Under the pieces are notes generated by a model that was given only the letters and a program-made list of their open reading frames with translations, was not told the origin of the DNA and did not search any database. A stretch of DNA of 64,000 bases. Source: a virus. The stretch is from IMG/VR virus record IMGVR_UViG_3300017725_001848. The stretch is one strand, 5' to 3'. This document shows, one piece after another, positions 4,001-61,924 of the stretch (its first letter is position 1; every line of letters begins with the position of its first letter). The translations under genes and the position numbers were made by a program.

Positions 4001-5142
4001 TGAATAGACCGTCTTGTATAGCACCTTGGGTAACAACATATGACCATACAGGTGGAGGCATACAAGTATGTTGTGAAGCAAATAAAATATTAATTCCTAA
4101 TAAAGAAAAAAGACATATGTCTTTTGAAGAACGCTTTTCTCATCCAGAAATGGAAAAGTTTAAAAAGATTATGTTGAATTCAGATACACTTCCTCCTATG
4201 TGTAATAATTGTGTATCACAAGAACAAAAAGGTTCTAAATCATTAAGGCAAGAATTCAATGAAGATTATTTAGATGATACATGGCAAGAAGATAAATTTG
4301 TATTAAGGTATTTAGATTATAGAGAAAGTAACTTGTGTAATTTTAGTTGCAAAATGTGTGGTAGTTATTTAAGTAGTACTCATGCAAAAATAGAAGGTAA
4401 GCATGGTAAGACTGGAGTACTTAATAATGTACATCAATTACAACAATGTTTAGATAATTTACATACTGTAGAACACGTATCATTTGCAGGCGGAGAGCCA
4501 TTAATGACTAAATCTTTCTTTGATATATGTAAAAAGATTAAACAATTAGGCAGAGAAAAAGACATCAGTATAAGCATGGTAACCAATGGAAGTGTACTGA
4601 ACAGGCACGGTGAGAATGTGTTAGAAACAATTGATGGATTTGCTGATGTAGGATTATCAATTAGTATAGATTGTGTAGGTGAACAACATGATTACTGGAG
4701 ACACAAAGGTACTTGGAATAAAGTTCTTTCTAACTTAAAAGAGTTTCATAAATTTAAATTATCTAATCCAAAGTCAGTACGTACAAAAATAAGAACAGCC
4801 ATAAGTTGGCCAAATGCATATGGTGCTAGATACGTGTTTGATGACTTAGCTCAATATGTTGATAAGATGAGACATAACTTTGTTACCAACCCATATGGTT
4901 TGAGTATTGATTGTTTACCAAAAGAACACCTAGACAAACTAATAGAGCATTGGAAAGATTACCCAGAAGTACAAGTAGCATTTAAAAATGTTGTACCAAA
5001 AGATGTATATCTATACCCAACAAAATTTATGCTTGAAAGACATGATAGATATCACGGTAACTCATTTGAAAAAGCATTTCCAGAGTTTGCCGACTTCTAT
5101 AAAAAAATAATACCAATAGAAGGCTTGACAAAGAACTTATAG
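4000..5142 (+). CDS. Radical SAM protein with N-terminal twitch-like Cys domain
   Basis: CIAPW..VCC..CNNC, then CNFSCKMC, FAGGEPL, VTNG, ISIDC. Confidence 0.9.
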   Translation: MNRPSCIAPWVTTYDHTGGGIQVCCEANKILIPNKEKRHMSFEERFSHPEMEKFKKIMLNSDTLPPMCNNCVSQEQKGSKSLRQEFNEDYLDDTWQEDKFVLRYLDYRESNLCNFSCKMCGSYLSSTHAKIEGKHGKTGVLNNVHQLQQCLDNLHTVEHVSFAGGEPLMTKSFFDICKKIKQLGREKDISISMVTNGSVLNRHGENVLETIDGFADVGLSISIDCVGEQHDYWRHKGTWNKVLSNLKEFHKFKLSNPKSVRTKIRTAISWPNAYGARYVFDDLAQYVDKMRHNFVTNPYGLSIDCLPKEHLDKLIEHWKDYPEVQVAFKNVVPKDVYLYPTKFMLERHDRYHGNSFEKAFPEFADFYKKIIPIEGLTKNL

Positions 5143-6587: not shown

Positions 6588-8096
6588 ATGGCAAGTAACA
6601 AAAACCTTACAGAAAGTAATAAAGACTACTCAGTATTCTTGCCGAGCATTAGTAGTTTTTATTCTAAGTTTATTAGACAAGCACAGAAAAGACCAGACTT
6701 TGTTAAACCAGAGAGAATGCCTAAGGGCTTTGAGTTTGGCATAGACGGCTTTGATTTTCTAAAACCTAAAGACAATTATTATAGTTACAAGTGGGGTTTA
6801 TACTCTGCAGGTCATGCCACTCGAGATCCAGTCAAAAGTGATGAGCAAGAACCTATGATTCAAAAACGTGATAGAGAACATAGTTTTATACTTGGTGATA
6901 GTGGTGGGTTTCAGATTGCTACAGGTGTAATCAAATGTGATTGGCCTAATTTTAAAACTGATGATGATCTACGTAAAACAATTTTAAATTGGTTAGAGCA
7001 TACTGCAGATTATAGTATGGTATTAGATATTCCTACATTAGCGGCGGCTCCACCATTGAATGCTAAAACAGGATTGAAAGATTGGGTTGATTGTTTAGAA
7101 TACACAATGTTTAATAACGATTACTTTGTACGTAATAGACAAGGTAAAACTAAATTCTTAAATGTATTACAAGGTAACAATGAGCAACAAGCTGATGATT
7201 GGTTTAGTGCAGTTAAACATTATCCATTTGAAGGTTGGGCAATGGCTGGTTACAATATGAAACAGTTGCATCTTGCTCTACGTAGACTTATTGTAATGCG
7301 AGATGAGAAACTGTTAGATCCAGGCAGAGATCTAATTCACTACTTGGGTACAAGTAAACTTAATTGGTCTTGTATCTTTACTGCAATACAACGTAACATT
7401 AGAGAAACTATTAATCCTAATATGATGGTTACGTATGATGCCGCTAGTCCTTTTATTACAACGGCTAAAGGACAAGCATACAGTCAACACGTTCATCGTA
7501 ACGATAAGTTTAGTTATGTAATGGAACAAGCAGTTGACGATAAGAAATTTCAACATAGCAATATACCGTTTCCATTTAACAGTCCTATTGGCGAACGTAT
7601 GACAATGGGTGACTTATGTTATATGGGTCCTGGTATGTTAAATAAAATTGGCAAAGAAGGCAAGACAAGTTGGGATAGTTTCTCATACTTCTTGTTAATG
7701 GCACACAATGTATATCAACACATTGAAGCTTGTCAACGTGCTAATACTCTAGCAGATATAGCCTGTACTAGATACAAGCCAAGTCACTTGGAATGGCGTA
7801 AAGTAAAACCTAAGCAAGAAGAATTTGACTTATGGGTTCCAAGAGATGTGATATATGTAACCGAGTTTATTGATAAGCTATTCAAAAGTGAAACACCAAT
7901 GCAATTATTAGAAGAAGCAGAATCAATGCTTACACACTTTAGTGGTATGAAGTCTATCAAAACTTCACAGAGTGCATTTGATAGTTTATTTGATTCTGGA
8001 GATGATTTACAAGACGTTGATGACGGCGAGTATACTAGTGAACAGGTAGAGGCCGCAGAAGACTTCTTGAATAACTTGGAGGAAACAAATGGCTGA
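6588..8096 (+). CDS. dpdA: Guanine transglycosylase family protein (DpdA-like; predicted to insert 7-deazaguanine into DNA)
   Basis: TGT motifs GDSGGFQ, VLDIPT, LNVLQG, IHYLGT, YDAASP. LDIPT and the DxAS motif match archaeal TGT/DpdA. No canonical CxCxxC Zn motif. folE, T-fold and queE genes are nearby. Confidence 0.75.
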   Translation: MASNKNLTESNKDYSVFLPSISSFYSKFIRQAQKRPDFVKPERMPKGFEFGIDGFDFLKPKDNYYSYKWGLYSAGHATRDPVKSDEQEPMIQKRDREHSFILGDSGGFQIATGVIKCDWPNFKTDDDLRKTILNWLEHTADYSMVLDIPTLAAAPPLNAKTGLKDWVDCLEYTMFNNDYFVRNRQGKTKFLNVLQGNNEQQADDWFSAVKHYPFEGWAMAGYNMKQLHLALRRLIVMRDEKLLDPGRDLIHYLGTSKLNWSCIFTAIQRNIRETINPNMMVTYDAASPFITTAKGQAYSQHVHRNDKFSYVMEQAVDDKKFQHSNIPFPFNSPIGERMTMGDLCYMGPGMLNKIGKEGKTSWDSFSYFLLMAHNVYQHIEACQRANTLADIACTRYKPSHLEWRKVKPKQEEFDLWVPRDVIYVTEFIDKLFKSETPMQLLEEAESMLTHFSGMKSIKTSQSAFDSLFDSGDDLQDVDDGEYTSEQVEAAEDFLNNLEETNG

Positions 8097-13870: not shown

Positions 13871-16558
13871 ATGAAAAAGCTAATTGCAGTTGCATTACTA
13901 GTAGTAGGATTAACTACTTCAGCAAATGCGTCATCTTTTAAAAGTTATTACGATTATGCATCAGGCCTAAATAGCGGATTGCAGATCAGTTTTTCCACTT
14001 CAATGATTAAGGCCTATGAACGAAGTAACAAAACATATGGCAATTTAATTACAAAATACGATCATATGTTTGGAAAATATTCTTGGTTCCAAAATATGAA
14101 ATCAAGGTACAAATTTCAACAAGCAGAAATAGTTAAGTATCAAGCCTTAATTAATAATAAAGAAGCATTAGTTACTCTAGTTAAAACTGAAACTAAAGTT
14201 ACTAATGGTGTTATTGTTACTAAAGGTGATACTATAGTTGCAAGTGAAAGTTCAGCAGTAGTAGAAGAAAGAACAGGTAATACTGTTAAAGAGTATGCAG
14301 TTGTTACTAAGATATATTCTACTCCTGTTAAAAAACAACACTGGCAAAATACACAAACTATTAAACATTACAGTGACGGATCAATGGGTTCTACTAGTGA
14401 TGTTAAAACAATCAAAATTGACAATACTACTGAAACTGAAACAAAAGTTGAAAAAGAACTTATCAGAGAATATGCAGTAGTAATAGAACAACCAATAGAA
14501 GATACAGTAGTTGTTACTCTAACTGAAGCTGAATATCTTGCTAGAGATGATGTATCTTTATATGATACACAAACTTACAAAGATGCAGTTTGGAATATGA
14601 ATAGCAGAATTAACGAATGGTATACTACTGAAATTCTTTCTAAGAACTATGGTAACCATTTAGAAGTAATTGGTGCACCGGCGGCGTGGAGTAGAGGATA
14701 TACAGGTAAAGATAGTATTATTGCTATTCTTGATACTGGTATTGATTTAGACCATAGCGAGTTTGAAAATAAAATTATAGATGCAAAATGTTTTACAAGT
14801 ACTTGTAAAGCAGGACACGAAACTATACAAGATGAAAATAGATACTCGCACGGAACACACGTTGCAGGTATTGCGGCCGCTAATTTAGATGGCAATGGTA
14901 CTACAGGTGTTGCTCCTGATGCAAGTTTATTAATTGCTAAAACAGCCTGGAATTTTGGTATGTTTGATTTTAGTACTGCCGACGAAGCTATTGCTTGGTC
15001 AGTACAAAATGGTGCTGATGTAATCAATATAAGTGCAAACTATAACTTTGATAGAACTTATATGAACAGTACTACAGAAGTATCGCCAGGTATGTATTTT
15101 GCAAATGATACACGAGGTAGAAATGGTATTACATATGACAAGTATGGATATGCGGCCTTATACAGTAGTGATATATATTACAAAAATATTGTAGAAGCTA
15201 TGAAAGGACATGAAGCAGTTCTTGTATTAGCGGCTGGTAATCAAAATGCTGACTATGCCGGACAGCCTAGTAAACTTGCATTTGAAGATGGTGTAGGTGA
15301 CAGGGTAATGATTGTTGGTTCATGGGATACACGAACTAATAAAATGGCACATGGTAGTAACAGAGCAGGTACTATATGTTATGACTTTAACTCAATTACA
15401 AATACTTGTAATTCAGATGATAAAGTTAGTGATCACTATTTGATCGCTCCTGGTAGATATATTGCGGCTCCTGATGCTAATGGTGAATATAGAACTAATA
15501 GTGGTACATCGATGGCGGCTCCTCAGGTTAGTGGTGCAGTTGCTATCATACATCAAATGTGGCCACATATGAAAGGTTCTAATATTAAGAAACTATTGCT
15601 AACGACAGCAGATAAAACAATAGCAAACTATGATGTAAATGTTCACGGACAAGGATTGTTAGATCTAGATGCGGCAACACTTCCACAAGGTGTTGTAGGA
15701 ATTCCTACAACAGGTAGAGCAGATGGAAATACAGTAAGTGTTGATGGAACTATTGCATTTAGTGGCGGTGCTAATATTTCAGCTTTTAATGAAATTATGG
15801 TATTAGACGAGTACGATAGAGATTATTATTTCAACGGAAATAATGTCGTACAAGTAAATGATACTAGAACTACTAGTGCTATATTGAATACTAAAGCAGG
15901 ATTTAACACAAACTATTATGCAGGTTATACTGGCGGACACTTTTTACCAGTTGCACATAATACAATGTTAAGTGTAAATGAAAATGCTAGTCAATATGGA
16001 ATTGCTACAAACATAAATAAGTTTACAATAGGTTATATTACAGAAGATAAAAGCTTCTTAGGTAATATTGCTGATAGTCCTCTTATGAGAGTTAACGGTT
16101 CACAAACTACATACTTAGGTTATAACAATAATCTTGATGTCGGAAATGGCGTTAACGTGTTTGGTAGTGCAACAGTAGGTTTCACTAATCTAAACGTTGA
16201 TAAAAGCTCAATGCTTAAAAGTGCAGATATGATGTTATCAAATAGTGCTACAATAGGTGTTAAACGTACAATAGACACCCATAGCTTCGGGTTTACAACA
16301 AGTATGCCAGTTGCTATAGTAGATGGCGATGCCAAGTTTAATATGCCTTCTACAGTAAGTGCTAATGGTGATATTGAGAATAGCGACATAAACAGTTCGT
16401 TAAAATCACAAAATAGAGAGATAGACTTTGGTGTGTTCTACAATGTAGGACTTACTGAAAATAGTACAATCTCAAGTTTTGCAGAAATGAGAACAAACTA
16501 TGCAGGTACCGAAGACGATACTGTTGAACTAGGTATTAACTATAGGATTACATTTTAA
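13871..16558 (+). CDS. Secreted S8 subtilisin-like serine protease with C-terminal outer-membrane beta-barrel-like (autotransporter-like) domain
   Basis: Signal peptide MKKLIAVALLVVGLTTSANA; triad ILDTGID / SHGTHVAG / SGTSMAAP; amphipathic beta-rich C-terminus ending in Phe (INYRITF). Confidence 0.85.
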   Translation: MKKLIAVALLVVGLTTSANASSFKSYYDYASGLNSGLQISFSTSMIKAYERSNKTYGNLITKYDHMFGKYSWFQNMKSRYKFQQAEIVKYQALINNKEALVTLVKTETKVTNGVIVTKGDTIVASESSAVVEERTGNTVKEYAVVTKIYSTPVKKQHWQNTQTIKHYSDGSMGSTSDVKTIKIDNTTETETKVEKELIREYAVVIEQPIEDTVVVTLTEAEYLARDDVSLYDTQTYKDAVWNMNSRINEWYTTEILSKNYGNHLEVIGAPAAWSRGYTGKDSIIAILDTGIDLDHSEFENKIIDAKCFTSTCKAGHETIQDENRYSHGTHVAGIAAANLDGNGTTGVAPDASLLIAKTAWNFGMFDFSTADEAIAWSVQNGADVINISANYNFDRTYMNSTTEVSPGMYFANDTRGRNGITYDKYGYAALYSSDIYYKNIVEAMKGHEAVLVLAAGNQNADYAGQPSKLAFEDGVGDRVMIVGSWDTRTNKMAHGSNRAGTICYDFNSITNTCNSDDKVSDHYLIAPGRYIAAPDANGEYRTNSGTSMAAPQVSGAVAIIHQMWPHMKGSNIKKLLLTTADKTIANYDVNVHGQGLLDLDAATLPQGVVGIPTTGRADGNTVSVDGTIAFSGGANISAFNEIMVLDEYDRDYYFNGNNVVQVNDTRTTSAILNTKAGFNTNYYAGYTGGHFLPVAHNTMLSVNENASQYGIATNINKFTIGYITEDKSFLGNIADSPLMRVNGSQTTYLGYNNNLDVGNGVNVFGSATVGFTNLNVDKSSMLKSADMMLSNSATIGVKRTIDTHSFGFTTSMPVAIVDGDAKFNMPSTVSANGDIENSDINSSLKSQNREIDFGVFYNVGLTENSTISSFAEMRTNYAGTEDDTVELGINYRITF

Positions 16559-17133
16559 TGTCAGTTAAACCATACAAAAGAGGCAAACTAGAGGTCATCG
16601 CAGGCCCTATGTTTGCCGGTAAGAGCAGTGAGCTTCTAAAGCGATTGCTCTTTATTGAACACGGTGGACACAAAGTATTAGTGCTAAAGCCTGTTATTGA
16701 TGATAGATATGATAGCAATTTTATTGTTACACACAATCAACTAAAACATCCAGCAGTAGCAGTTATAGATTTGGAGTTAGTCAAAGATAACTATACAATT
16801 AAACCTTATAACTTTCATACAGTATTCATTGACGAAGTACAGTTTTTTGATACGGCAGAAACTATGTGGTTTATTGAAGAAGGATTAAGAGAAGGTGTTA
16901 ACTTTGTATGTGCAGGATTAGATCAAGACAGTAGAGGTGTTCCTTTTGAAACTACATCAAGATGCTTGGCACTAGCAGATGAAGTTATTAAGATCAAAGC
17001 ATTCTGTACTATATGTGGTTTAGATGCTGGTAAAACTCAAAGACTAAGAGCCACTAAACTTTCTGATAGAGTAAAAGTAGGTGGTGCAGAAACTTATGAA
17101 CCAAGGTGCAACGAACATTGGGAGGCAAAGTAA
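16558..17133 (+). CDS. tdk: Thymidine kinase
   Basis: GPMFAGKS, FIDEVQF, AGLDQD, CTIC, VGGAETYEPRC. Confidence 0.95.
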   Translation: MSVKPYKRGKLEVIAGPMFAGKSSELLKRLLFIEHGGHKVLVLKPVIDDRYDSNFIVTHNQLKHPAVAVIDLELVKDNYTIKPYNFHTVFIDEVQFFDTAETMWFIEEGLREGVNFVCAGLDQDSRGVPFETTSRCLALADEVIKIKAFCTICGLDAGKTQRLRATKLSDRVKVGGAETYEPRCNEHWEAK

Positions 17134-18945: not shown

Positions 18946-19740
18946 TTGAAGACATATAAGATAGCAGTATTTGGTTGTGGGTTTGTAGGAGGAACAGTTG
19001 CTGACTTTTTAGAGCAAGGCGGAGTAGAAGTAACTAGAGTTGATCCTAAACTATACCCAGACACAGATCCAACAGAAGCAATAATGAATACAGATGGTAT
19101 AATTATTTGTGTACCAACTCCAAGTATGGAAAATGGTTCATGTGATGATAAACATATTAAAGAAGTATTGGAACTATGTGATTACAGAACTAAAGTATTA
19201 TTAAAGAGTACAGTAACATCAGACTTATTAAGTAGCTATGTACCTAACGTAGTATATAATCCAGAGTTTTTACGAGAAGCAAGTGCTAAAGAAGATTTTG
19301 CAAATCAACACACACAAATATTTGGCCATCATAACAATGCATATGATGATGCCGTTTGGTGGGCAGATTTGTTTAATGAAATTCATTCTAAACCTATTGC
19401 TACAGAATTTACCAATAGAGAGACAGCTAGTATGATAAAATATGTCCATAATGCTTGGTTAGCCACAAAAGTAGCATGGTTTCATGAACTATATGATACA
19501 ATGCAACCTGAGGTAAACTATGGCACTTTATCTAGTGTACTAGGTAAATTTTCTACTATAGGATCGACACATATGCTTGTGCCAAACTCTCAAGGAACCC
19601 TAGGATATAGTGGGTCTTGTTTTCCTAAAGATCTAAAAGCATTGACAAATATCCTAAATCATAGTATAATAAAGAACGTTGTTAAGGTAAATGAAACCCT
19701 ATTAATCAAGGAGGTTACAAATGGGAAAAACAATAACTAG
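18946..19740 (+). CDS. UDP-glucose/GDP-mannose 6-dehydrogenase family protein lacking the C-terminal UDP-binding domain
   Basis: GCGFVG, ICVPTP, LKSTV, YNPEFLRE, IKYVHN, GYSGSCFPKD; only 264 aa. Confidence 0.8.
   Translation: MKTYKIAVFGCGFVGGTVADFLEQGGVEVTRVDPKLYPDTDPTEAIMNTDGIIICVPTPSMENGSCDDKHIKEVLELCDYRTKVLLKSTVTSDLLSSYVPNVVYNPEFLREASAKEDFANQHTQIFGHHNNAYDDAVWWADLFNEIHSKPIATEFTNRETASMIKYVHNAWLATKVAWFHELYDTMQPEVNYGTLSSVLGKFSTIGSTHMLVPNSQGTLGYSGSCFPKDLKALTNILNHSIIKNVVKVNETLLIKEVTNGKNNN
19642..19670 (+). promoter_or_regulatory. Perfect sigma70 promoter TTGACA-N17-TATAAT inside the 3' end of the dehydrogenase gene
   Basis: -35 at 19642-19647, -10 at 19665-19670; upstream of the glycine-zipper gene. 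Confidence 0.75.
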
Positions 19741-20230
19741 TATTGTAACATTAACAGTTGCAATAATTTTAACATATGCTTCAACTGCTAGTGCAGGTGG
19801 ATTTACATCTGATCCTGTAAAAACAGATAGGGCATACATCAAAGATCATTATATCACTAAAACAATTAGAACACCTAATCCATCTACACAAACTTGTAGA
19901 GAAGTTGATGTTCCAATATATGGAAACACAGGTGGTAATACAGATGGTGCAGAAATACTAGGTGCTATCATTGGTGGAGTAATTGGATCTAAAATTGGAA
20001 GTGGCGATGGTAGTAAAGTTGCAACAGGTGTTGGTGCTATAATTGGTTCTAAGATTGGTAAAAATAATGCTCAAACTAATAACAATAATATTGTTGGTTA
20101 TAAGAGACAAACAATCTGTGAAACTAATACAACATATAACACAGTTCAACAAAACGTATATAGCCACAGTACAATTAGATTTACTGATCAAAACGGTAAA
20201 GTTTTTGAACTTACATTTCAAAGACAATAA
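19721..20230 (+). CDS. Secreted glycine-zipper 2TM protein
   Basis: Signal peptide ending TASA; GAIIGGVIGSKIGSGDGSKVATGVGAIIGSKIG. Confidence 0.8.
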   Translation: MGKTITSIVTLTVAIILTYASTASAGGFTSDPVKTDRAYIKDHYITKTIRTPNPSTQTCREVDVPIYGNTGGNTDGAEILGAIIGGVIGSKIGSGDGSKVATGVGAIIGSKIGKNNAQTNNNNIVGYKRQTICETNTTYNTVQQNVYSHSTIRFTDQNGKVFELTFQRQ

Positions 20231-20243
20231 CTCAAAATTTATA

Positions 20244-20278
20244 AAAAGATCCGTGGTGCCTACAATTACGGATCTTTT
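20244..20278 (+). terminator. Stem-loop, probable intrinsic terminator
   Basis: AAAAGATCCGT (20244-20254) pairs with ACGGATCTTTT (20268-20278), right after the glycine-zipper stop. Confidence 0.65.
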
Positions 20279-20310
20279 CTTAGTATTTAAACAGAAGGAA
20301 TATAAATAGT

Positions 20311-21207
20311 ATGGAAGAGAAAAAGTATTACTACTCAGAAATATTTCATTCTATACAAGGTGAAGGACATTATACAGGAGTACCAACTGCCTGGATAAGA
20401 TTCTTTTTATGTAACTTACAATGTAGTGGGTTTGGGCAGATTGATCCTACAAATCCTGAAACATATGATTTACCATTTGAAGACTTTGATGTATCAAGTG
20501 TAAAGAGAGTTGAAGACTTGCCTGTATGGGAAAAAGGTTGTGATAGTAGTTACACGTGGGCCAAGAAGTTTAAAAGTCTTATGGGTCAAGAAACTCCTTC
20601 TGTATTAGCAAATAAAATTGTAGACATAATGAAAAATGAAAGTAACCCTGATGGATTGTTTTTACATCCTGTTACAGGGCAAAGACAGCATTTATGTATT
20701 ACAGGCGGAGAGCCATTAATGGCAACAGGGCAAATGGCTACAGTAGGAATATATGAAGAACTTGAAAGACAAAATAACTTACCAGAGTCAATGACATTTG
20801 AAACAAATGGTACACAAAAACTCAGAGAACCATTTATGGAATGGGTTAAGAGAATTGATACAGAAATATTTTTTAGTTGTAGTCCTAAACTATTTACAGT
20901 ATCAGGAGAAGCTCCTGGTAAAGCAATTAAGCCTGAAGTAGTTGCAGAGTACAGAAAACTATCTAGTAAAGGGCAATTAAAATTTGTAGTAGGTCCTAAA
21001 GATAGAGAGTGGGATGAGATGGAATCAGTAATTAAACAGTTTAAAGATGCAGGTGTTGACTGGCCCGTATGGGTTATGCCAACAGGTGCTAGAGAAGAAG
21101 AGCAGACTGCAGGTGCAGGTAAAGTTGCAGAAAAAGCATTTAAACGTGGGTACAATGTTGCGGCAAGAGTACACGTTTACTTGTTTGGTAATGCTATAGG
21201 AACATAA
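20311..21207 (+). CDS. queE: 7-carboxy-7-deazaguanine synthase (radical SAM) with an insertion in the cluster-binding loop
   Basis: EIFHSIQGEG, WIRFFLCNLQC..(38 aa)..CDS, ITGGEP, FETNG, SCSPK, LKFVV, RVHVYL. Confidence 0.88.
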   Translation: MEEKKYYYSEIFHSIQGEGHYTGVPTAWIRFFLCNLQCSGFGQIDPTNPETYDLPFEDFDVSSVKRVEDLPVWEKGCDSSYTWAKKFKSLMGQETPSVLANKIVDIMKNESNPDGLFLHPVTGQRQHLCITGGEPLMATGQMATVGIYEELERQNNLPESMTFETNGTQKLREPFMEWVKRIDTEIFFSCSPKLFTVSGEAPGKAIKPEVVAEYRKLSSKGQLKFVVGPKDREWDEMESVIKQFKDAGVDWPVWVMPTGAREEEQTAGAGKVAEKAFKRGYNVAARVHVYLFGNAIGT

Positions 21208-21518
21208 TGGAATATAAAAAGAAATTGGATGACAAGATAAAAGAACTTAACTCTACAAGGGTATTTAAAAAAGTTACACCAAAGGGTGATTTATCTTGGT
21301 ATGTAAAATGGACAGCAAGTATATTAATTCTTTTTGCAACCGTTGCTAGAGCAACAGGTACTGTACCACAAGTTGATTTATGGTTTGGATTATTTGGAAC
21401 TATGGGTTGGTTTTGGGTTGGAATGCTTTGGCATGATAGGGCTCTTATCATGCTTAATGGGGTATTAGTAACATTAATTATAATGGGACTTGTGAAATAT
21501 TATTTTGGAGTAGCATAA
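21207..21518 (+). CDS. Small membrane protein (3 TM)
   Basis: Hydrophobic segments after SWYVKW; coupled to queE and iscU. Confidence 0.7.
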   Translation: MEYKKKLDDKIKELNSTRVFKKVTPKGDLSWYVKWTASILILFATVARATGTVPQVDLWFGLFGTMGWFWVGMLWHDRALIMLNGVLVTLIIMGLVKYYFGVA

Positions 21519-21904
21519 TGGCTTACAGTAAAAAAGTTATGGATCATTACAATAATCCACGTAATGTAGGTAAGATGGATAAAGAAGATCCTAAGGTAGG
21601 AACAGGAATGGTAGGTGCTCCTGCTTGTGGTGATGTAATGCAGTTACAAATTAAAGTAGAAGGCGAAGTTATAGAAGATGCTTGTTTTAAAACATACGGT
21701 TGTGGAAGTGCGATTGCTAGTAGCAGTCTTGTAACAGAAATGATTAAAGGTATGACACTAGGAGAAGCAAAGGCAGTTAAAAATATGGACATAGTAGATG
21801 AACTATCATTACCTCCAGTTAAAATTCATTGTAGTGTATTGGCGGAAGATGCTATTAAGTCAGCAGTAAAGAATTATCAGAACAAAAATAGAATGCATAG
21901 ATAA
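21518..21904 (+). CDS. iscU: Fe-S cluster scaffold protein
   Basis: YSKKVMDHYNNPRNVG, VGAPACGDVM, KTYGCGSAIASSS, LPPVKIHCSVLAEDA. Confidence 0.97.
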   Translation: MAYSKKVMDHYNNPRNVGKMDKEDPKVGTGMVGAPACGDVMQLQIKVEGEVIEDACFKTYGCGSAIASSSLVTEMIKGMTLGEAKAVKNMDIVDELSLPPVKIHCSVLAEDAIKSAVKNYQNKNRMHR

Positions 21905-22302
21905 TGGCAAGTATATCAGAATGGGCAGAGAACTTAGATCTCTTAGAAGATGGTACAGAAAAACTAACGTATCTAGTTGAGTTAGCTAGAAAAGAAACTA
22001 GCCTACCACTAGAACTAAGAACAAAAGATCGTTTAATAGGTGGATGTATGTCAAAGATATGGGTTGATGTAGGAATTGTAGAAGATAAAGTAAAAGTTTA
22101 CTACGACAGTGATGCAATGATCACTAAAGGAATAACAAGTATTGTATGTGATTGTTTTTCAGATAAAACAGTTGCTGATGCTAAGAAAATTAAACTAGAA
22201 GACTTTGAAAAGTTAAACATTCAACAGTTGTTAACACCACAAAGAAGAAATGGGTTAGGTAGTTTAATTGGGACAATAATAAAAAGGATAGAATCGATAT
22301 GA
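21904..22302 (+). CDS. sufE: Sulfur-acceptor protein SufE/CsdE
   Basis: IGGCMSKIWV, DSDAMITKG, LLTPQRRNGL. Confidence 0.9.
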   Translation: MASISEWAENLDLLEDGTEKLTYLVELARKETSLPLELRTKDRLIGGCMSKIWVDVGIVEDKVKVYYDSDAMITKGITSIVCDCFSDKTVADAKKIKLEDFEKLNIQQLLTPQRRNGLGSLIGTIIKRIESI

Positions 22303-23387
22303 CAAAGATAGGTAATTACGTATTCACTAGCGAAAGTGTTAGTGACGGGCACCCAGACAAAGTAGCAGATCAAATTAGTGATGCTCTAGTTGATGCGGGT
22401 CTAAAGAATGGCGATGATACCACAAGAGTAGCAGTTGAAACTCTTGTAACAACAAATCTTGTAACCGTTGCAGGTGAAGTTAAAAACTTTAATGTAACAA
22501 AAGAAGAAGTAGAACAAATTGTAAGAAACAAAGTAAAAGAAATAGGCTATGAACAAGATGGATTTCATTGGGATAAATTAAAAGTCTACAATGAAATACA
22601 TTCACAGAGTGCAGATATTGGATTAGGTACAGACGACTTTGGTGCAGGAGATCAAGGTATTATGTTTGGTTATGCTTGTAATGAGAATGAATCATACTTA
22701 CCAGCACCAATACATTATTCACACGAGATTCTTAAACAATTAAAAACACAAAGACAACACGTATTAGGTCCTGATAGTAAATCACAAGTAAGTATTGAAT
22801 ACGTAGGTGGTATACCCAAAAGAGTAGATCAAGTTATTATCAGTAGTCAACATGGCGAAGGACAAATTCAACAAGCAAGAAATATATGTAAGTTAGCAGG
22901 AATGACAGTATTGGAAGGTTTATATGATGAAAATACTACATGGCATCTTAATCCAACCGGTAACTTTGTTATCGGCGGTCCTGACGGTGATACTGGCCTT
23001 ACAGGCAGAAAGATTATCGTTGATACATATGGGGGCTTTGCTCCTCACGGTGGTGGCGCTTTTAGCGGAAAGGACCCTACGAAAGTAGATAGAAGTGCGG
23101 CATATATGGCACGTTGGTTAGCAAAAAACGTTGTAGCAGACAATATGGCTGATTGGTGTAGTATCCAATTAAGTTATGCTATTGGTATTAAAGAACCAAC
23201 AAGTATATACGTTGATAGTAATGGACATAACAAAAGTATTGAAAAGTTTATTAAAGAAAATATTGACCTAACACCAAAAGGAATCATTGACAAATTCGAT
23301 TTATTCAAGTATTATATGTATAGTAAGAATTGTACATTTGGACATTTTGGAAATAAAGATGTACCGTGGGAGAAAATAGGATGGTAA
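22299..23387 (+). CDS. metK: S-adenosylmethionine synthetase
   Basis: SESVSDGHPDK, GAGDQG, GGPDGDTGLTGRKIIVDTYGG, GGGAFSGKDPTKVDRS. Confidence 0.97.
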   Translation: MTKIGNYVFTSESVSDGHPDKVADQISDALVDAGLKNGDDTTRVAVETLVTTNLVTVAGEVKNFNVTKEEVEQIVRNKVKEIGYEQDGFHWDKLKVYNEIHSQSADIGLGTDDFGAGDQGIMFGYACNENESYLPAPIHYSHEILKQLKTQRQHVLGPDSKSQVSIEYVGGIPKRVDQVIISSQHGEGQIQQARNICKLAGMTVLEGLYDENTTWHLNPTGNFVIGGPDGDTGLTGRKIIVDTYGGFAPHGGGAFSGKDPTKVDRSAAYMARWLAKNVVADNMADWCSIQLSYAIGIKEPTSIYVDSNGHNKSIEKFIKENIDLTPKGIIDKFDLFKYYMYSKNCTFGHFGNKDVPWEKIGW

Positions 23388-23812
23388 AAGTAAATATATT
23401 ATGGGCGTCAATGTTTGGAACCGCAGAAGATGTTGCAATTGACGTACACGAAAAAGTAAAAGATAAAGGCGTAGAAATATTTGAAATGAATGATGTTTCA
23501 ATGGAAGACTTCCAAGCAATGGAAAACGTTGTATTTGTTTCTAGTAGCACAGGACAAGGTGATGTACCTACTAATGGTGAAAACTTTTATAGTGAACTAG
23601 AAAAAGCAGAACTTGATCTAAGTAAAACAAAATATGCAGTATGTGCATTAGGTGATAGTTCTCATACAAATTTCTGTGGTGCAGGTAAAAAGATAGATGC
23701 ACGAATGGAAGCACTCGGAGCAACACGAATAGCAGATAGGCTTGAGTGTGATGGCGACGATGAAGGTGCTAGAGAATATTCAGAAGATTCAATAGCAAAA
23801 CTTATAGGATGA
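23381..23812 (+). CDS. Flavodoxin (MioC/CysJ-N-like short chain)
   Basis: WASMFGTAE, SSTGQGDVP, ALGDSSHTNFCGAG, ECDGD. Start moved to ATG 23381. Confidence 0.9.
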   Translation: MVKVNILWASMFGTAEDVAIDVHEKVKDKGVEIFEMNDVSMEDFQAMENVVFVSSSTGQGDVPTNGENFYSELEKAELDLSKTKYAVCALGDSSHTNFCGAGKKIDARMEALGATRIADRLECDGDDEGAREYSEDSIAKLIG

Positions 23813-23815
23813 TAA

Positions 23816-24100
23816 ATGTTTAAAAAACTAAAAAATCTAATGTCAGGTAGTAGCAATAGACAGCAAATAATGTCTGACAAAGAAAAAGCAACAGCCGAAG
23901 GCAAACCTTTTGTAAAAGTAATTGATGTTAAGTTTGATGAAAAGAATCCAGGAGATGGATACTTTGAGTTAGAATGGAACAAACACTTTGTAACTAAATT
24001 AGAAGAAGCAGGTTATAGTGGCAAAGATGAAAATGAAACAGTCGATGCATGGTTTACTACACTATGCAGAGGAATTGCAGAAGATGAATCTACGTCGTAG
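23816..24100 (+). CDS. Hypothetical protein
   Basis: Intact ORF within the operon. Confidence 0.65.
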   Translation: MFKKLKNLMSGSSNRQQIMSDKEKATAEGKPFVKVIDVKFDEKNPGDGYFELEWNKHFVTKLEEAGYSGKDENETVDAWFTTLCRGIAEDESTS

Positions 24101-24130
24101 ATTCTATAAACTTAAATTATAAGGAATAAA

Positions 24131-25129
24131 ATGTTGAGTTATATTTTAGTTGATGCCGCTAATATGTTTTTTAGAGCAAGGCACGTTGTAAGAGGAAGTG
24201 ATATGAAAACTAAGATTGGTATGTCATATCATATTATTTTTAATAGTATTAACAAGGTGTGGCGTGAGCAACAAGGCACACACGTTGTATTATGCTTAGA
24301 AGGACGTAGCTGGCGTAAAGACGCATACGAGCCTTATAAACGTAACAGAGCTGAAGCAAGGTCTGCTTTAACAGATCAAGAGAAAACTGAAGACGAAGAG
24401 TTTTGGCAAGCATTTGATGAACTGCAACAGTTCTTTAAAGACAAAACAAATTGTACAGTATTACAAAACAAAGAGTGCGAAGCAGATGACTTTATTGCAC
24501 GTTGGATTCACAATCACCCTAATGATAAACATTGTATAGTAAGTAGCGATAGTGACTTCTATCAGCTTATTAAAGAGAATGTAACACAATACAATGGTAT
24601 CATGGGACAATTAATTACTATAGATGGCATATTTGATGATAGTGGTAAAGCTATTATTGATAAGAAAACTAAAGAACCTAAGTTACTAGGAGACCCAGAA
24701 TACTTATTATTTGAGAAGTGTATACGAGGTGATACTAGTGATAATATCTTTAGTGCATTTCCTGGTGCTCGTAAAAAAGGTACTAAGAATAAAGTAGGTA
24801 TGCTAGAAGCCTTTGCTGATAAAGGTGCAAAAGGCTTTAATTGGAATAACTTTATGTTACAACGATGGGTTGATCATGAGAATGTAGAACACAGAGTACT
24901 TGATGACTATCAACGTAATTTACAGTTAATTGATCTTAATGCACAACCAGATGAGATTAAACAAAAGCTAGATGGTGCTATTGTTGAACAAGTGCAGAAG
25001 CAACCTAAGTCACAAGTAGGTATTCATTTTATGAAGTTCTGTGGCAAATGGGATATGCAAAGAGTATCTGAAAAAGCACAGGATCATTCACAATATTTAA
25101 ATTCAAGTTATGGGAGTGCAAATGCCTAG
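24131..25129 (+). CDS. rnh: RNase H / 5'-3' flap exonuclease (T4 rnh-like)
   Basis: LVDAAN, YKRNR, CEADDFI, SSDSDFYQL, GDTSDNI. Confidence 0.88.
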   Translation: MLSYILVDAANMFFRARHVVRGSDMKTKIGMSYHIIFNSINKVWREQQGTHVVLCLEGRSWRKDAYEPYKRNRAEARSALTDQEKTEDEEFWQAFDELQQFFKDKTNCTVLQNKECEADDFIARWIHNHPNDKHCIVSSDSDFYQLIKENVTQYNGIMGQLITIDGIFDDSGKAIIDKKTKEPKLLGDPEYLLFEKCIRGDTSDNIFSAFPGARKKGTKNKVGMLEAFADKGAKGFNWNNFMLQRWVDHENVEHRVLDDYQRNLQLIDLNAQPDEIKQKLDGAIVEQVQKQPKSQVGIHFMKFCGKWDMQRVSEKAQDHSQYLNSSYGSANA

Positions 25130-28886: not shown

Positions 28887-29585
28887 ATGCAAGTACGTTT
28901 GGTCAGTTATAGCAAACCAACAGAACATTTTGAGGCTGAAGGGCTAAACAATGCTCAAGACCTCATAGCCTATTGTGCTAAAGTAAGCAATCCTAATGCA
29001 CAAATTAATAAGAAGACTAGCAGTAAATTAATATCATACCTAATTAAACATAAGCACTGGTCACCATTAGAGATGGTTAGTGCTTGTTTAGAAATTGAAA
29101 CAACCAGAGATATAGCTAGACAATTACTAAGGCATCGTAGTTTTAGTTTTCAAGAGTTTAGTCAACGTTATGCTGATGTTAACGAGCAAGGTATGCAGTT
29201 TAAGATTAGAGAAACACGTAAACAAGATCTTACTAATAGACAAAACTCAATTGAAATTGAGAACAACCCAGAATTACAATTAAATGTAAAAGATCAAGAA
29301 CTAATTACTAATTGGCAAAGAAAGCAACACGGAGTAATAAATAATTGTAAGGAAGTATATAATTGGGCTATTGAAAATGGCATTGCTAAAGAACAAGCAA
29401 GAGCAGTACTGCCAGAAGGACTTACGTCAAGTAGACTATATGCAAATGGCACATTAAGAAGTTGGGTTCATTATATAGAATTACGTGGAGCAAATGGCAC
29501 ACAAAAAGAGCATATGGAAATAGCTCGTGCCTGTGCAGACGTTATTGCAGAAATATTTCCATTAATTAGAGAATTAAAAATATGA
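28887..29585 (+). CDS. thyX: Flavin-dependent thymidylate synthase
   Basis: HWSPLE, RQLLRHRSFSFQEFSQRY, AKEQARAVLP, RSWVHYIELR, QKEH. Confidence 0.95.
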   Translation: MQVRLVSYSKPTEHFEAEGLNNAQDLIAYCAKVSNPNAQINKKTSSKLISYLIKHKHWSPLEMVSACLEIETTRDIARQLLRHRSFSFQEFSQRYADVNEQGMQFKIRETRKQDLTNRQNSIEIENNPELQLNVKDQELITNWQRKQHGVINNCKEVYNWAIENGIAKEQARAVLPEGLTSSRLYANGTLRSWVHYIELRGANGTQKEHMEIARACADVIAEIFPLIRELKI

Positions 29586-33398: not shown

Positions 33399-33442
33399 AA
33401 TATTATATGCCAAAGAAAGCAAACTTAGAAGAAGGACAAAAA

Positions 33443-34567
33443 ATGCAAACTGCGATATCAGATACAAGAACTGTAAAAATTAGCGAAGCCACTACTTTGA
33501 TTACTAGGGCTTTTAAAAAGAAGAGACCTGTATTTTTATGGGGTCCTCCAGGAATTGGTAAATCAGAATTAATCCAAGGTATTGGTGATTCTGGTGCATT
33601 AGGTAAGACTCACGTTGTTGATATGAGACTTGCTTTATTTGAGCCAACTGACCTTAGAGGTTACCCAGCTCCAGATCTTAAAAATGGTAAAATGGTTTGG
33701 TTACCACCAGCTGATTTACCTTCAGAAGAATTTGCGAAACAGTTTGATACTGTTATCGTTTTCTTAGACGAAATGAACTCTGCCGCTCCTAGTGTACAGG
33801 CCGCAGGTTATCAGTTAATTCTTAATAGACGAATTGGTCAATATGTATTACCAGACAATGTAGTTTTAATTGCCGCTGGTAATAGAGAGACTGACAAAGG
33901 TGTTACTTATAGAATGCCTAAGCCACTTGAGAATAGATTCGTACACTTTGAACTACGTGTTGATTTTACAGATTGGTTAAATTGGGCAGTTCATAATAAT
34001 GTTAACCCAGATGTAGTTGGATACCTTTCATTTGCCAAAGGTGATCTTTATAACTTTGATCCACAATCAAGTTCACGTGGATTTGCTACACCAAGGGCTT
34101 GGACATTTACTTCAGAATTACTAGAAGATGGTGATGAACTTTCTGAAAGTCTACAAACAGATATGGTTGCAGGTTGTGTAGGAGAAGGTGTTGCTGTCAA
34201 GTTTATGGCTCATAGAAAAATTGCAGGTGACCTTCCTGTTCCAGAAGATGTACTAGATGCTAAAGTTAAGAAAGTTGATAATACTGAAGTATCAGCTATG
34301 TATGCTCTTGCTACATCACTATGTTATGAGTTGAGAGATAGTTTTATTGCTGGTGAAAAAGCTGGTGCTAAATCTAAGGAGATGGACAAATACCATAAAA
34401 GGTTCTCAAACTTCATCAGCTTTATGATGGATAACTTTGAAACTGAAATGGTTGTTATGGCTTCTAGGATTGCAATGCAACAGTACAAGCTAGTACCTAA
34501 GCAACAAAAGATAGAGAGGTTTGATGAGTACTTTAACCGATATGGTAGACTCGTACTTGACGCCTAA
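33443..34567 (+). CDS. MoxR-like AAA+ ATPase
   Basis: Walker A GPPGIGKS, Walker B VFLDEMN, AAGNR, PLENRF, TPRAW. Start moved to ATG 33443 (GAAGGA RBS). Confidence 0.9.
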   Translation: MQTAISDTRTVKISEATTLITRAFKKKRPVFLWGPPGIGKSELIQGIGDSGALGKTHVVDMRLALFEPTDLRGYPAPDLKNGKMVWLPPADLPSEEFAKQFDTVIVFLDEMNSAAPSVQAAGYQLILNRRIGQYVLPDNVVLIAAGNRETDKGVTYRMPKPLENRFVHFELRVDFTDWLNWAVHNNVNPDVVGYLSFAKGDLYNFDPQSSSRGFATPRAWTFTSELLEDGDELSESLQTDMVAGCVGEGVAVKFMAHRKIAGDLPVPEDVLDAKVKKVDNTEVSAMYALATSLCYELRDSFIAGEKAGAKSKEMDKYHKRFSNFISFMMDNFETEMVVMASRIAMQQYKLVPKQQKIERFDEYFNRYGRLVLDA

Positions 34568-34862
34568 ATTAAAAGAGGGAGAGACAGTTGATCTCTCCCA
34601 ATTTACCCCAAGACAGAGAACTAACATTAGATTATATGGTTTGGGATTCAAAGATTATACTGCTAGTGATATTAGTAAATACAAGCAAGAGTGGATGAAA
34701 AACTGTGAAATTATTCCATTATACAGTAAAGGACATAAGACTTGGATAACTAAATTTTGTAGAAAACACTTTTATCACCAAGATTTTCATATTGAAATTG
34801 ATAAAGTTTTCTTTAAAAACCAACCAGATGCAATGGTATTTAAATTGTCATATAAAGGTTGA
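34521..34862 (+). CDS. Hypothetical protein with C-terminal FxNxxxAMxFKL motif
   Basis: Intact ORF between the AAA and vWA genes; exact start uncertain. Confidence 0.55.
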   Translation: MMSTLTDMVDSYLTPKLKEGETVDLSQFTPRQRTNIRLYGLGFKDYTASDISKYKQEWMKNCEIIPLYSKGHKTWITKFCRKHFYHQDFHIEIDKVFFKNQPDAMVFKLSYKG

Positions 34863-34887
34863 CATATGTTGGTAAAGATAGTATTAT
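34859..34887 (+). promoter_or_regulatory. sigma70 promoter TTGACA-N17-TATTAT
   Basis: -35 at 34859-34864 overlapping the upstream stop, -10 at 34882-34887; AAGATA half-site in the spacer. Confidence 0.7.
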
Positions 34888-34917
34888 ATAGTTATAAGTT
34901 AGATAAGGGACATAAAG

Positions 34918-36084
34918 ATGAATAAAACTGCTGAAGAAAGAATTACACAATCTAGAGTTAGGTTGCTATTAACTAAACCGTTTTTTGGGCAATTGGCTGT
35001 TAGATTAAAAATTGAAGAAGCTGACTATTTGCCTACTGCGGCAACAGATGGTAGAAAGTTTCTTTTTAATCGTGATTTTGTAAACAGTTTAACAGATCCT
35101 ATGTTAGACTTTTTAGTGGGACATGAAGTATTGCATTGTGTATTTGATCATATGCAGGCAAGAGGAGATCGTGAACCGCAATTATATAATGCGGCCGCTG
35201 ATTATAATATTAATATGACACTAGTTGAACAAAACGTAGGTGAACCAATTACAGAAGATAAACTAGGTGGTGGCAAAATTTGTCTTGATTGGAAATATCA
35301 AGGTTGGAATAGTTTTGAAATTTATGATCATCTTAAAGCAAATAAAAAAGATGCTAAAGGTATGGATGTACACTTAGAAGAAATTAAGCCAGGTGACAAA
35401 GATGGCAAAGGTATAGGTGCTGAATTAAGTGAAGAAGAAAAGAAAGCACTAGCAGACGAAATTAAACAAGCGGCAATCCAAGCGGCACAAAATGCTGGTA
35501 TGGATGTGCCTGAATCCGTTAAGAGAATGATTAATGAATTAATTGCTCCTAAAATGGATTGGAGAGATATTCTTAGAACACAATTAGAAAGTTCTCTTAA
35601 AAACGATTTTACTTTTATGCGTCCAAGTAAAAGGTCAGGAGAAGTTATTTTTCCTGGTATGAATAAGGACGAGCAATTGAATATAGCGATTGCATTAGAT
35701 ACTTCAGGAAGTATAAGTCAAGATATGCTTCGTGACTTCCTATCTGAAGTACAGGGTATTATGGATCAGTATAATAGCTATAAAGTTACTATTATGCAAT
35801 TTGACACTAAGGTTTATGGTGTTGAAGAATTCCATAGTGATGATGGACGAACTATGAACGACTACCAACTTGAAGGTGGTGGTGGAACTGACTTTGATGC
35901 AGTTTATAACTATATGGAATTGAACGACATCAATCCAGATCAGTTAGTCATGTTCACAGACGGATACCCTTGGGAAAGTTGGGGTAACCCAGACTACTGT
36001 GATTCATTATTTGTAATCCATAGTGATAAGCAAAAAAGAATTAAAGCACCATTTGGTGTCACAGTACATTACGAAGCAACATAA
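34918..36084 (+). CDS. Metallopeptidase-like (HExxH) plus vWA domain protein (DUF2201-like), partner of the MoxR ATPase
   Basis: AATDG, HEVLH, AADY; MIDAS LDTSGS, GGGTDF, MFTDG. Confidence 0.88.
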   Translation: MNKTAEERITQSRVRLLLTKPFFGQLAVRLKIEEADYLPTAATDGRKFLFNRDFVNSLTDPMLDFLVGHEVLHCVFDHMQARGDREPQLYNAAADYNINMTLVEQNVGEPITEDKLGGGKICLDWKYQGWNSFEIYDHLKANKKDAKGMDVHLEEIKPGDKDGKGIGAELSEEEKKALADEIKQAAIQAAQNAGMDVPESVKRMINELIAPKMDWRDILRTQLESSLKNDFTFMRPSKRSGEVIFPGMNKDEQLNIAIALDTSGSISQDMLRDFLSEVQGIMDQYNSYKVTIMQFDTKVYGVEEFHSDDGRTMNDYQLEGGGGTDFDAVYNYMELNDINPDQLVMFTDGYPWESWGNPDYCDSLFVIHSDKQKRIKAPFGVTVHYEAT

Positions 36085-41975: not shown

Positions 41976-42514
41976 TGAAGTATGTATTAGTAGCTCTGAA
42001 AGGTGAACTTCCAGAGCATAATCTAAATCCAGAAGAATATAAAGTCTGGTATCATGGAGTCGGAAAAGTAAATGCTACAATGTTTGCTACTATGGCTTGT
42101 ATACAATCTGATTGCGAAGCAGTAATTAATTATGGAACTGCTGGTGCATTAAATACAGAACTAGCAGAACAATTAGTTCAGGTTGGACTTGTTAAACAAC
42201 GTGATATGGATACAAGACCACAAGCTGGGTTAGGTATAACTCCTTTTGAAGAAACTGGATTTGCAGGAGATATTAGAATATCAAATAGTGCATGGAGTTG
42301 TAGTAGTGGTGATAATTTTGTACAAGCACCACCAGAACTTGAAAGTGATATAGTTGATATGGAATCGTATGGTATAGCAAAAGTTTGTAAACATTTTAAC
42401 AAGCCTTTTATTTGCTATAAATATGTAACAGATTTTGCTGATGAGAATGCGGCAGATAGTTGGAAAAATAATCAAGCAAAAGGCGCAGGTGCCTTTTTGG
42501 AGATGTGTAAATAA
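41975..42514 (+). CDS. mtnN: 5'-methylthioadenosine/S-adenosylhomocysteine nucleosidase (Pfs/MTAN family)
   Basis: GVGKVNA, NYGTAG, SGDNF, VDMES, YVTDFAD. Confidence 0.85.
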   Translation: MKYVLVALKGELPEHNLNPEEYKVWYHGVGKVNATMFATMACIQSDCEAVINYGTAGALNTELAEQLVQVGLVKQRDMDTRPQAGLGITPFEETGFAGDIRISNSAWSCSSGDNFVQAPPELESDIVDMESYGIAKVCKHFNKPFICYKYVTDFADENAADSWKNNQAKGAGAFLEMCK

Positions 42515-42515
42515 T

Positions 42516-61766: not shown

Positions 61767-61924
61767 TGAAATATAACAAAAGAAACAATAGGGATCCTAG
61801 AGGGATATTTGCTGGAATGGACGAAGAGTTATTTGAAAAACTTAAAAAGTCAATAGGTGTTGCAAAAGAAGAAAAAAAGTTTATAAAGTATAAACCTAAA
61901 AAGAAACCAGGAAAAAGTAAATGA
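61766..61924 (+). CDS. Small Lys-rich protein (not in ORF track)
   Basis: Own translation: MKYNKRNNRDPRGIFAGMDEELFEKLKKSIGVAKEEKKFIKYKPKKKPGKSK*. TAATG and ATGA coupling at both ends; AAGGAG upstream. Confidence 0.6.
   Translation: MKYNKRNNRDPRGIFAGMDEELFEKLKKSIGVAKEEKKFIKYKPKKKPGKSK

Follow-up and report, generated by a model that had tools for sequence, protein, structure and literature searches.

Uncultured marine T4-like (myovirus-like) genomes that carry the iron-sulfur (Fe-S) scaffold IscU and/or A-type carriers, together with up to 12 radical S-adenosylmethionine (radical-SAM) genes, have been described previously, and their viral Fe-S assembly proteins were proposed to work for Fe-S proteins that the viruses themselves encode (Nishimura et al., 2017; PMC5332604). 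In the present study, we analyzed a window of 64,000 nucleotides, by which we mean the whole stretch under analysis, corresponding to the reverse strand of bases 30890-94889 within a 99,491-bp virus record (IMG/VR record IMGVR_UViG_3300017725_001848; CheckV completeness of 28%), where genes for a DUF6552 protein, IscU, SufE, the S-adenosylmethionine (SAM) synthetase MetK, and a short-chain flavodoxin follow a queE-like gene in one uninterrupted run. The core idea, that viral Fe-S assembly genes work for viral radical-SAM enzymes, is already published (PMC5332604), and our data refine it. Gammaproteobacterial-type IscU and many radical-SAM genes are common to those genomes and to this one, whereas SufE, MetK, flavodoxin, and an MTAN-like nucleosidase are added here, four functions are fused behind queE, and the genome class is larger (~330-340 kb, with 16-22 radical-SAM genes). 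What is new beside the earlier work is that there is no dose relation between the set of helper genes (hereafter, the kit) and the radical-SAM count, the full cassette being a rare pile-up of common and optional phage helper genes.

The six genes from queE-like to flavodoxin are co-oriented on the plus strand, like nearly all genes of the window, and overlap at successive junctions by 1, 1, 1, 4, and 22 nt. They encode a QueE-like protein of 298 amino acids (20311-21207), recognized by similarity to phage QueE-like proteins and by its predicted fold; the DUF6552 small protein that opens the insert (21207-21518; DUF6552 match, 8e-19); the IscU scaffold (21518-21904); the sulfur acceptor SufE (21904-22302); MetK (22299-23387); and the flavodoxin that closes the insert (23366-23812). 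Two plus-strand backbone genes come next, namely orf94 (23816-24100), which directly follows the queE-like gene in most relatives, and a 5'-3' exonuclease gene (FEN/RNase H-like; 24131-25129), supported by a profile match and by conserved synteny, which marks the far edge of a hotspot.

Regarding gene identities, IscU passed TIGR01999 (213.9 bits; cut-off, 192.4), and its Cys37, Asp39, Cys62, His104-Cys105, and LPPVK motif are invariant in four phage copies. Its nearest cellular relatives among the matches listed are mostly Gammaproteobacteria, at ~75% identity; these matches show no more than a proteobacterial, mostly gammaproteobacterial, origin of the ISC type, and do not identify the host. 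SufE matched PF02657 (97 bits, 7e-28; cut-off, 27) with an invariant Cys48 (GCMSKIW) and a conserved RRNG motif, while the SufE and CsdE equivalogs both scored under their cut-offs. MetK passed TIGR01034 (429.7 bits; cut-off, 309.4), has all three Pfam domains, and is a member of a large viral MetK clade; against cultured-phage records, it gave distant matches only (47-50% identity, mostly Streptococcus prophages), without an annotated close relative. The flavodoxin matched PF00258 (100.7 bits, 1e-28; cut-off, 25) with conserved phosphate-loop and FMN-loop motifs (SMxGxAED and STTGxGDxP); its best NCBIfam matches are MioC-like and CysJ-domain models, every NCBIfam flavodoxin equivalog remaining below cut-off, and it starts with GTG (23366), with an alternative ATG at 23381. 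The DUF6552 protein belongs to a mostly viral family and has three hydrophobic segments. DUF6552 genes were also seen immediately beside kit genes elsewhere, as DUF6552-SufE in three loci (L099, L100, and L102) and as DUF6552-MTAN in a complete genome (G033; L263:8577).

As in the bacterial ISC and SUF systems (iscRSUA-hscBA-fdx; sufABCDSE), the phage IscU retains its ligands and the HscA-binding LPPVK, SufE retains its persulfide-accepting cysteine, and an A-type carrier is encoded on the contig; unlike them, the phage mixes one ISC part with one SUF part. The 99-kb contig yielded no cysteine desulfurase (IscS/SufS), chaperone, ferredoxin, or SufBCD, and the phage parts must therefore plug into host machinery. 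Moreover, to our knowledge, no cellular operon combines IscU, SufE, MetK, and flavodoxin, so that these genes were brought together in phages.

The window holds 14 radical-SAM genes, comprising 12 complete PF04055 matches, one match cut at the window end, and the queE-like gene, while the 99-kb contig holds 19 (18 PF04055 matches and the queE-like gene); most of the radical-SAM genes scanned against NCBIfam passed the cut-off of NF033640 (N_Twi_rSAM). The 13 window genes with PF04055 matches lie on the plus strand, as a pair at 2906-4000 and 4000-5142; a group of three at 39299-40729, 40704-41975, and 42435-43775, of which the second and third match NF033640 and directly flank a 179-amino-acid MTAN-like nucleosidase gene (41975-42514, plus strand; PNP_UDP_1, PF01048 passed); and a main cluster at 50534-64000, with starts at 50534, 51570, 53736, 54865, 59506, 60549, and 62469 and a further copy, beginning at ~63710, which the window end truncates. 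A gene for a pyridoxal phosphate (PLP) enzyme and an Asp/Arg-hydroxylase-like gene sit among the genes of the main cluster. A first-pass annotation, made from the letters of the window, had described the overlapping run from QueE through a small membrane gene to flavodoxin, had counted 14 radical-SAM genes, had placed MTAN between two of them at 41975, and had matched the gene functions to the needs of radical-SAM enzymes; all of this was borne out, with intact open reading frames (ORFs) on the plus strand, functions that fit, and an MTAN-like protein of a short type. The two methyltransferases that it also named were not confirmed, since no methyltransferase family was found among roughly 60 window ORFs scanned.

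The phage belongs to a marine jumbo-phage lineage. IMG/VR contains 194 close relatives of its QueE-like protein, a large protein collection contains >5,500 homologues, and complete relatives with terminal repeats measure 328 kb and 343 kb. PF04055 matches number 22 in G011 (100% complete), 17 in G033 (100%), 16 in G032 (93%), and 11-14 in G016 (87%), and reach 20-21 in lineage fragments of 90-170 kb; the radical-SAM expansion is thus a trait of the lineage, where 16-22 genes per genome are normal. Across several members (G011, G033, G032, G036, G039, and G046), these genes were mostly of the N-terminal-twitch family NF033640, which is uncharacterised, and formed several clusters per genome, interspersed with PLP enzymes and with amidinotransferase-like and aminoacyl-tRNA synthetase-like genes.

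The queE-like gene is part of the lineage backbone and stands outside the inserted cassette. Among the 80 closest queE-like loci, 78 lack the cassette, with orf94 and the 5'-3' exonuclease gene following queE-like directly or after unrelated small ORFs; the full cassette is present in one (G001), and MetK alone in another (G002). The gap between queE-like and the exonuclease gene is hypervariable, from 0.36 to ~5 kb (window 21208-24130; L001-L080; L269-L346), and elsewhere carries a 2-oxoglutarate-Fe(II) oxygenase, an NAD-epimerase, and many unknown ORFs. Because the cassette is absent from these 78 loci and the gap cargo is so varied, DUF6552-IscU-SufE-MetK-flavodoxin is a hotspot insert. Furthermore, partial arrangements were detected, with queE-MetK in 25 of 70 loci (36%) of an unbiased scan for the second of two queE-like types (type B), queE-x-SufE-MetK in at least 11 loci, and flavodoxin-x-x-queE-MetK in the complete genome G033, which shows that auxiliary genes were assembled stepwise into an operon at a recombination hotspot. 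As further cargo of the gap, a protein of 370-394 amino acids with weak N6/N4-methylase likeness was seen just before SufE-MetK, and in two loci IscU lay between orf94 and the exonuclease gene.

From these data, we consider that the DUF6552-IscU-SufE-MetK-flavodoxin run has about an even chance of being a 2.6-kb cargo cassette, accreted in the hotspot between queE-like and orf94-FEN, that serves as a facultative booster for radical-SAM enzymes. All cassette genes are intact and, taken singly, are mobile auxiliary genes common among marine phages, while the fusion into one translationally coupled unit behind queE was found only in this phage and one close relative. During infection, the cassette would raise the supply of [4Fe-4S] clusters, SAM, and low-potential electrons, with IscU acting as the scaffold, SufE stimulating a host desulfurase of the SufS/CsdA type, and the A-type carrier encoded elsewhere on the contig delivering the clusters. 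Its main clients would be the phage's own radical-SAM enzymes, that is, the QueE-like enzyme, which would act in the modification of DNA with 7-deazaguanine, and the twitch-domain enzymes, each probably requiring two clusters. The nucleosidase of MTAN type in the radical-SAM cluster would remove 5'-deoxyadenosine (5'-dAdo). The phage would depend on its host for the desulfurase and the flavodoxin reductase, as neither was found on the contig. The kit is facultative and not required; sister phages with equal or larger radical-SAM sets have one or two of its genes. In favor of the booster are the gene identities with their conserved catalytic residues, the overlapping junctions behind a terminator-like hairpin, the insertion into a conserved backbone, the partial arrangements, the NF033640 matches, and the A-type carrier on the contig, as well as, as detailed below, the nearness of flavodoxin, MTAN-like, and some SufE genes to radical-SAM genes, the RNA-library contigs on the operon, and the activation of QueE by flavodoxin. 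If the cassette does feed radical-SAM enzymes, it offers ready-made partners for in vitro reconstitution (matched flavodoxin, scaffold, sulfur relay, and 5'-dAdo nucleosidase) of N_Twi_rSAM, a large uncharacterised family of which each genome of this very abundant lineage of marine jumbo phages has 16-22 copies.

Several results, including the distribution of the single parts given further below, weigh against such a booster. With regard to gene content, G011 is complete and has 22 radical-SAM genes but carries SufE only, G032 (93% complete) has 16 and carries MetK only, and two records of ~80 kb with 14 and 12 radical-SAM genes (G008 and G012) carry none of the five kit genes. Elsewhere, G016 combines IscU with SufE, and G033 has IscU, SufE, MetK, flavodoxin, a full-length PNP/MTAN, and two A-type carriers, dispersed over ~270 kb; at least one kit gene is present in every near-complete radical-SAM-rich genome examined. 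Over 32 queE-anchored records, the number of kit families correlated with the radical-SAM count (rho ~0.5), which is a record-length effect, since the partial correlation given record length fell to r = 0.13-0.22 (p = 0.2-0.5; n = 30-32). Conversely, IscU, SufE, and MetK are common in radical-SAM-poor phage records. Moreover, MetK beside queE needs a rationale other than QueE demand, given that QueE uses SAM catalytically, and the co-location of the cassette genes may merely reflect the hotspot. Contigs from RNA libraries show that the phage is present in them but are no proof of transcription or timing.

Hence, the supply chain proposed in the first-pass annotation stands as to intact genes, fitting functions, and the nearness of MTAN-like and flavodoxin genes to radical-SAM genes, and fails as to conserved synteny and dose relation; neither conserved synteny nor co-variation with the radical-SAM count, as a dedicated support system would have, was found. 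The co-occurrence across phage genomes that it had put forward as a check, and whose absence it had said would speak against it, is largely missing in quantitative terms once record length is taken into account. Its statement that these are not scattered auxiliary genes does not hold in relatives, where they are scattered, optional, and mobile, the full cassette occurring once in 80 loci and the G033 set being spread over 270 kb; likewise, a demand that host supply cannot cover is at odds with sister phages whose 22 and 16 radical-SAM genes are accompanied by SufE or MetK alone. The operon is neither a conserved system nor a necessity, and it cautions that genes which form a neat functional set on a single phage do not always make up a conserved system.

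Against the booster reading stands, first, the possibility that unrelated general auxiliary genes piled up in the hotspot, their position behind queE being without specific functional meaning; here, IscU and SufE would attend to Fe-S homeostasis of host and phage, MetK would provide SAM for methylation or polyamines, and flavodoxin would be an electron carrier for low iron. We regard this as unlikely, albeit as a serious competitor, and it is favored by the many unrelated cargos of the queE-FEN gap, by the loss of the correlation after length correction, and by the fact that Fe-S assembly genes have long been known as auxiliary genes of photic-zone viruses (PMC5332604). The distribution of the parts speaks on both sides. 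We scanned the viral collection with each part as anchor, which yields phylogenetically non-independent loci, and took the background from two complete genomes, where 5-8% of genes are adjacent to a radical-SAM gene and 13-21% have a radical-SAM or queE gene no more than three genes away.

The MetK clade has at least 559 viral loci, queE-MetK-orf94-FEN being a common arrangement, and one MetK lies on an 81%-complete phage of 172 kb without any radical-SAM match. IscU has at least 589 loci in a broad sample that does not contain the known close copies; it was paired with one or two A-type carrier genes in ~40 of 75 viral loci (L542-L621), lay within three genes of a radical-SAM gene in six of 75 (8%), and came mostly from records holding 0-3 radical-SAM genes, so that IscU with an A-type carrier looks like a common viral Fe-S module. 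SufE was absent from these sampled IscU/A-type carrier loci. For SufE, a single sequence found four loci only and an alignment query was needed; among the 80 loci examined, queE-x-SufE-MetK occurred in at least 11, a radical-SAM cluster followed by x-SufE and, 6-7 genes later, IscU in four, and DUF6552-SufE...IscU in three. SufE stood between radical-SAM genes in three loci, including the complete genome G011, and after or inside radical-SAM clusters in G006, G016, and G011. Nevertheless, ~50 of the 80 loci had no radical-SAM or queE gene within three genes, most having none on the retrieved locus, and with 19 of 78 (24%) within that distance, which equals the background of 13-21%, there is no enrichment of SufE near radical-SAM genes. 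These three families are thus widespread, mostly away from radical-SAM genes and in records poor in them, as the coincidence of cargos would have it.

On the other side, four functions that fit a single enzyme class are joined in one unit through stops that overlap the next starts, the SufE-MetK pair recurs in several arrangements, at least one kit gene accompanies each near-complete radical-SAM-rich genome, and the flavodoxin and the MTAN-like gene are enriched near radical-SAM genes. Flavodoxins of the cassette type were found in eight loci only, and in four of six distinct contexts they lay within three genes of a radical-SAM or queE gene, which is suggestive of a tie to radical-SAM genes by context. 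IscU, SufE, A-type carriers, and MetK look like general-purpose genes. For ocean biology, this separates the context-linked parts (nucleosidase and flavodoxin) from the general ones (IscU, SufE, A-type carrier, and MetK). In the literature searched on IscU plus flavodoxin as phage auxiliary genes, nothing specific was found.

The MTAN-like nucleosidase has 249 viral relatives. In 21 of 75 loci (28%; background, 5-8%), its immediate neighbor is a radical-SAM gene, and at least five distinct gene orders place it inside radical-SAM clusters; in the nearest clade (51-85% identity), the order radical-SAM-MTAN-radical-SAM is almost always kept. By context, this gene is specifically tied to radical-SAM genes, and more strongly so than the flavodoxin. 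Compared with MtnN/Pfs, it shares the PNP_UDP_1 family and the catalytic residues: E11, M129-E130, and D153 do not vary among five phage homologues and correspond to Glu12, Met173-Glu174, and Asp197 of Escherichia coli (the N-terminal Glu being aligned by eye), and its best PDB sequence matches are the E. coli and Salmonella MTAN. In contrast to them, it is ~50 residues shorter (179 versus ~230 amino acids), apparently through loss of an N-terminal beta-hairpin, and reaches no MTAN equivalog cut-off, scoring 57 bits against 169 for the best MTAN model and 42.5 against 73.8 for TIGR01704; the closest model is the short "nucleosidase" PRK05634 (75 against 129). Weak matches to futalosine hydrolase and HpnG models were obtained as well. 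Because the MTAN catalytic residues are kept, ordinary hydrolysis of 5'-dAdo, methylthioadenosine, or S-adenosylhomocysteine is the simplest activity.

It is doubtful, yet worth weighing, that this protein is a pathway enzyme and not a waste remover, cleaving adenine from an adenosylated intermediate of a neighboring radical-SAM enzyme. MTAN/MqnB performs such a cleavage in the futalosine route. The conserved flanks across 51-85% identity, the cluster-embedded positions, the shortened form below all MTAN equivalog cut-offs, and the weak futalosine hydrolase and HpnG matches are consistent with this role, while the retained Glu, Met-Glu, and Asp and the occurrence of more distant members in radical-SAM-poor phages, such as a complete 190-kb genome with one radical-SAM gene, argue for the ordinary hydrolase.

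A more ambitious version of the booster would make the cassette a private activation system, where the flavodoxin is a specificity-matched reductant for the QueE-like enzyme, with its unusual cluster motif (CX3CX38C), and for the N-terminal-twitch enzymes, and where IscU, SufE, MetK, and the nucleosidase help to run ~20 oxygen-sensitive enzymes in iron-poor, oxic surface-ocean hosts, this genome being the most consolidated stage of assembly; we hold this to be improbable. Flavodoxins are known to pair with particular clients, MioC with biotin synthase and YkuN/FldA with QueE. The phage short-chain flavodoxin, with its MioC-like and CysJ-domain best matches and its place next to radical-SAM genes in several phages, resembles the flavodoxin/reductase/NADPH (reduced nicotinamide adenine dinucleotide phosphate) mode of activation, from which it differs in that no flavodoxin reductase was found on the contig.

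The QueE-like protein had no Pfam match, including to Radical_SAM, and its matches to five QueE NCBIfams were confined to residues ~6-39 and scored 22-40 bits (cut-offs, 200-300). However, it shares 41-46% identity along its whole length with QueE-like proteins from jumbo myophages of Aeromonas and Vibrio, and an AlphaFold2 (AF2) model (predicted local distance difference test, pLDDT, 78.5; predicted template modeling score, pTM, 0.79) had QueE structures as all of its six best PDB fold matches (6nhl, 5th5, 5tgs, and 4njg; template modeling score, TM, 0.61-0.75 by target), so that the protein is predicted to have the QueE fold. Its predicted cluster motif consists of CNLQC, a 38-residue insert, and a third cysteine, which is non-canonical compared with CX3CX2C or CX14CX2C; all of 17 sequences, drawn from both QueE-like types, have Cys34, Cys38, and Cys77, and the third cysteine aligns with that of CDTxxTW in E. 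coli QueE. The motif spans residues 34-77 (window 20410-20545), and its insert, between the second and third cysteines, was modeled at low confidence (pLDDT 54-70). In this model, the insert lies near the cluster. For other members of the QueE family, inserts at that place have been associated with specificity for the reductant. The two types are 34-41% identical, with nothing intermediate, and are found at one and the same backbone position, ahead of orf94/FEN, in different sub-lineages (window 20311-21207, type A; L265:8895-9791; L261:11203-12096); both share CX3C, a long insert, and C, and their presence at one site looks like in-place gene replacement.

In common with phage 7-deazaguanine clusters (FolE-QueD-QueE-(QueC)-DpdA; e.g., Vibrio phage nt-1 and Campylobacter phage CP220), the contig encodes the QueE-like protein, FolE (in the window; PF01227, 3.5e-38), and a PTPS/QueD-like protein (outside the window; weak against TIGR03367); it departs from them in that QueC was not found on the contig, in the CX3CX38C motif, and in that its lineage has two QueE-like types at one backbone site. 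A DpdA candidate at 6588-8096 had no Pfam or NCBIfam match. Outside the window, the gene next to the PTPS/QueD-like gene is a radical-SAM gene (G000:C1:8763-10461), which was considered as the "real" QueE and rejected, being MoaA/TrsS-like; an A-type Fe-S carrier lies 4 kb beyond (G000:C1:13889-14269; TIGR00049 above cut-off). These extend the contig's complement of genes related to Fe-S clusters and pterins beyond what the first-pass annotation covered. A system of flavodoxin, flavodoxin reductase, and NADPH activates QueE, which regenerates SAM (catalytic use) and still yields 5'-dAdo through shunt cleavage (PMC11994313).

Taken together, it is very unlikely that the kit is dedicated to the 7-deazaguanine pathway (FolE, QueD-like, QueE-like, and DpdA-like) instead of the large cluster, with the flavodoxin as matched reductant of a QueE that has a 38-residue insert in its cluster loop: the queE-like gene does head the operon, MetK follows queE in 36% of the unbiased type-B loci, G033 has flavodoxin two genes upstream of queE and MetK directly after it, FolE and QueD-like genes are present, the QueE fold carries a non-canonical motif, and flavodoxin systems activate QueE in vitro (PMC11994313), but no kit gene stands beside queE in 78 of 80 type-A and 45 of 70 type-B loci, QueE regeneration of SAM makes an extra MetK unneeded (PMC11994313), flavodoxin adjoins non-QueE radical-SAM genes in other relatives, and in G006 and G016 the big cluster has SufE and IscU at its end.

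Concerning signals around the operon, a terminator-like hairpin with a 14-bp stem and a T-rich tail (20244-20278, plus strand) closes the upstream unit just before the queE-like gene, and no further plus-strand terminator-like site was found up to 27000. A scan for sigma-70 promoters remained at chance level (47 found versus 44 expected). The word TATAAATA occurs only twice in the 64 kb, both strands considered, against 15 +/- 3.6 expected; its copies, both on the plus strand, lie at 20301-20308, 2 nt before the queE-like ATG, and at 42416-42423, 11 nt ahead of the TTG with which the radical-SAM gene at 42435 starts. Such depletion suggests that the word may be a signal. A late promoter shared by the operon and the cluster was considered for TATAAATA and rejected, the copies being too near the starts for a T4-type late start with a ribosome-binding site, and no inference on timing was drawn from the word.

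In two seawater metatranscriptome libraries, each from a different study, contigs identical to parts of the window were found on queE-like, iscU, sufE, the flavodoxin gene, orf94, and the exonuclease gene, and single contigs span from the hairpin into queE, from flavodoxin into orf94, and from orf94 into the exonuclease gene. One of them (19700-20363) runs from the glycine-zipper gene over the hairpin into the queE-like gene; a contig spanning the hairpin means either incomplete termination or phage DNA in the library.

Elsewhere in the window, ThyX, thymidine kinase, and an AAA ATPase with a DUF2201/VWA gene were detected at 28887-29585, 16558-17133, and 33407-36084, respectively, representing ordinary nucleotide metabolism and a CobS/CobT-like pair typical of large marine myophages.

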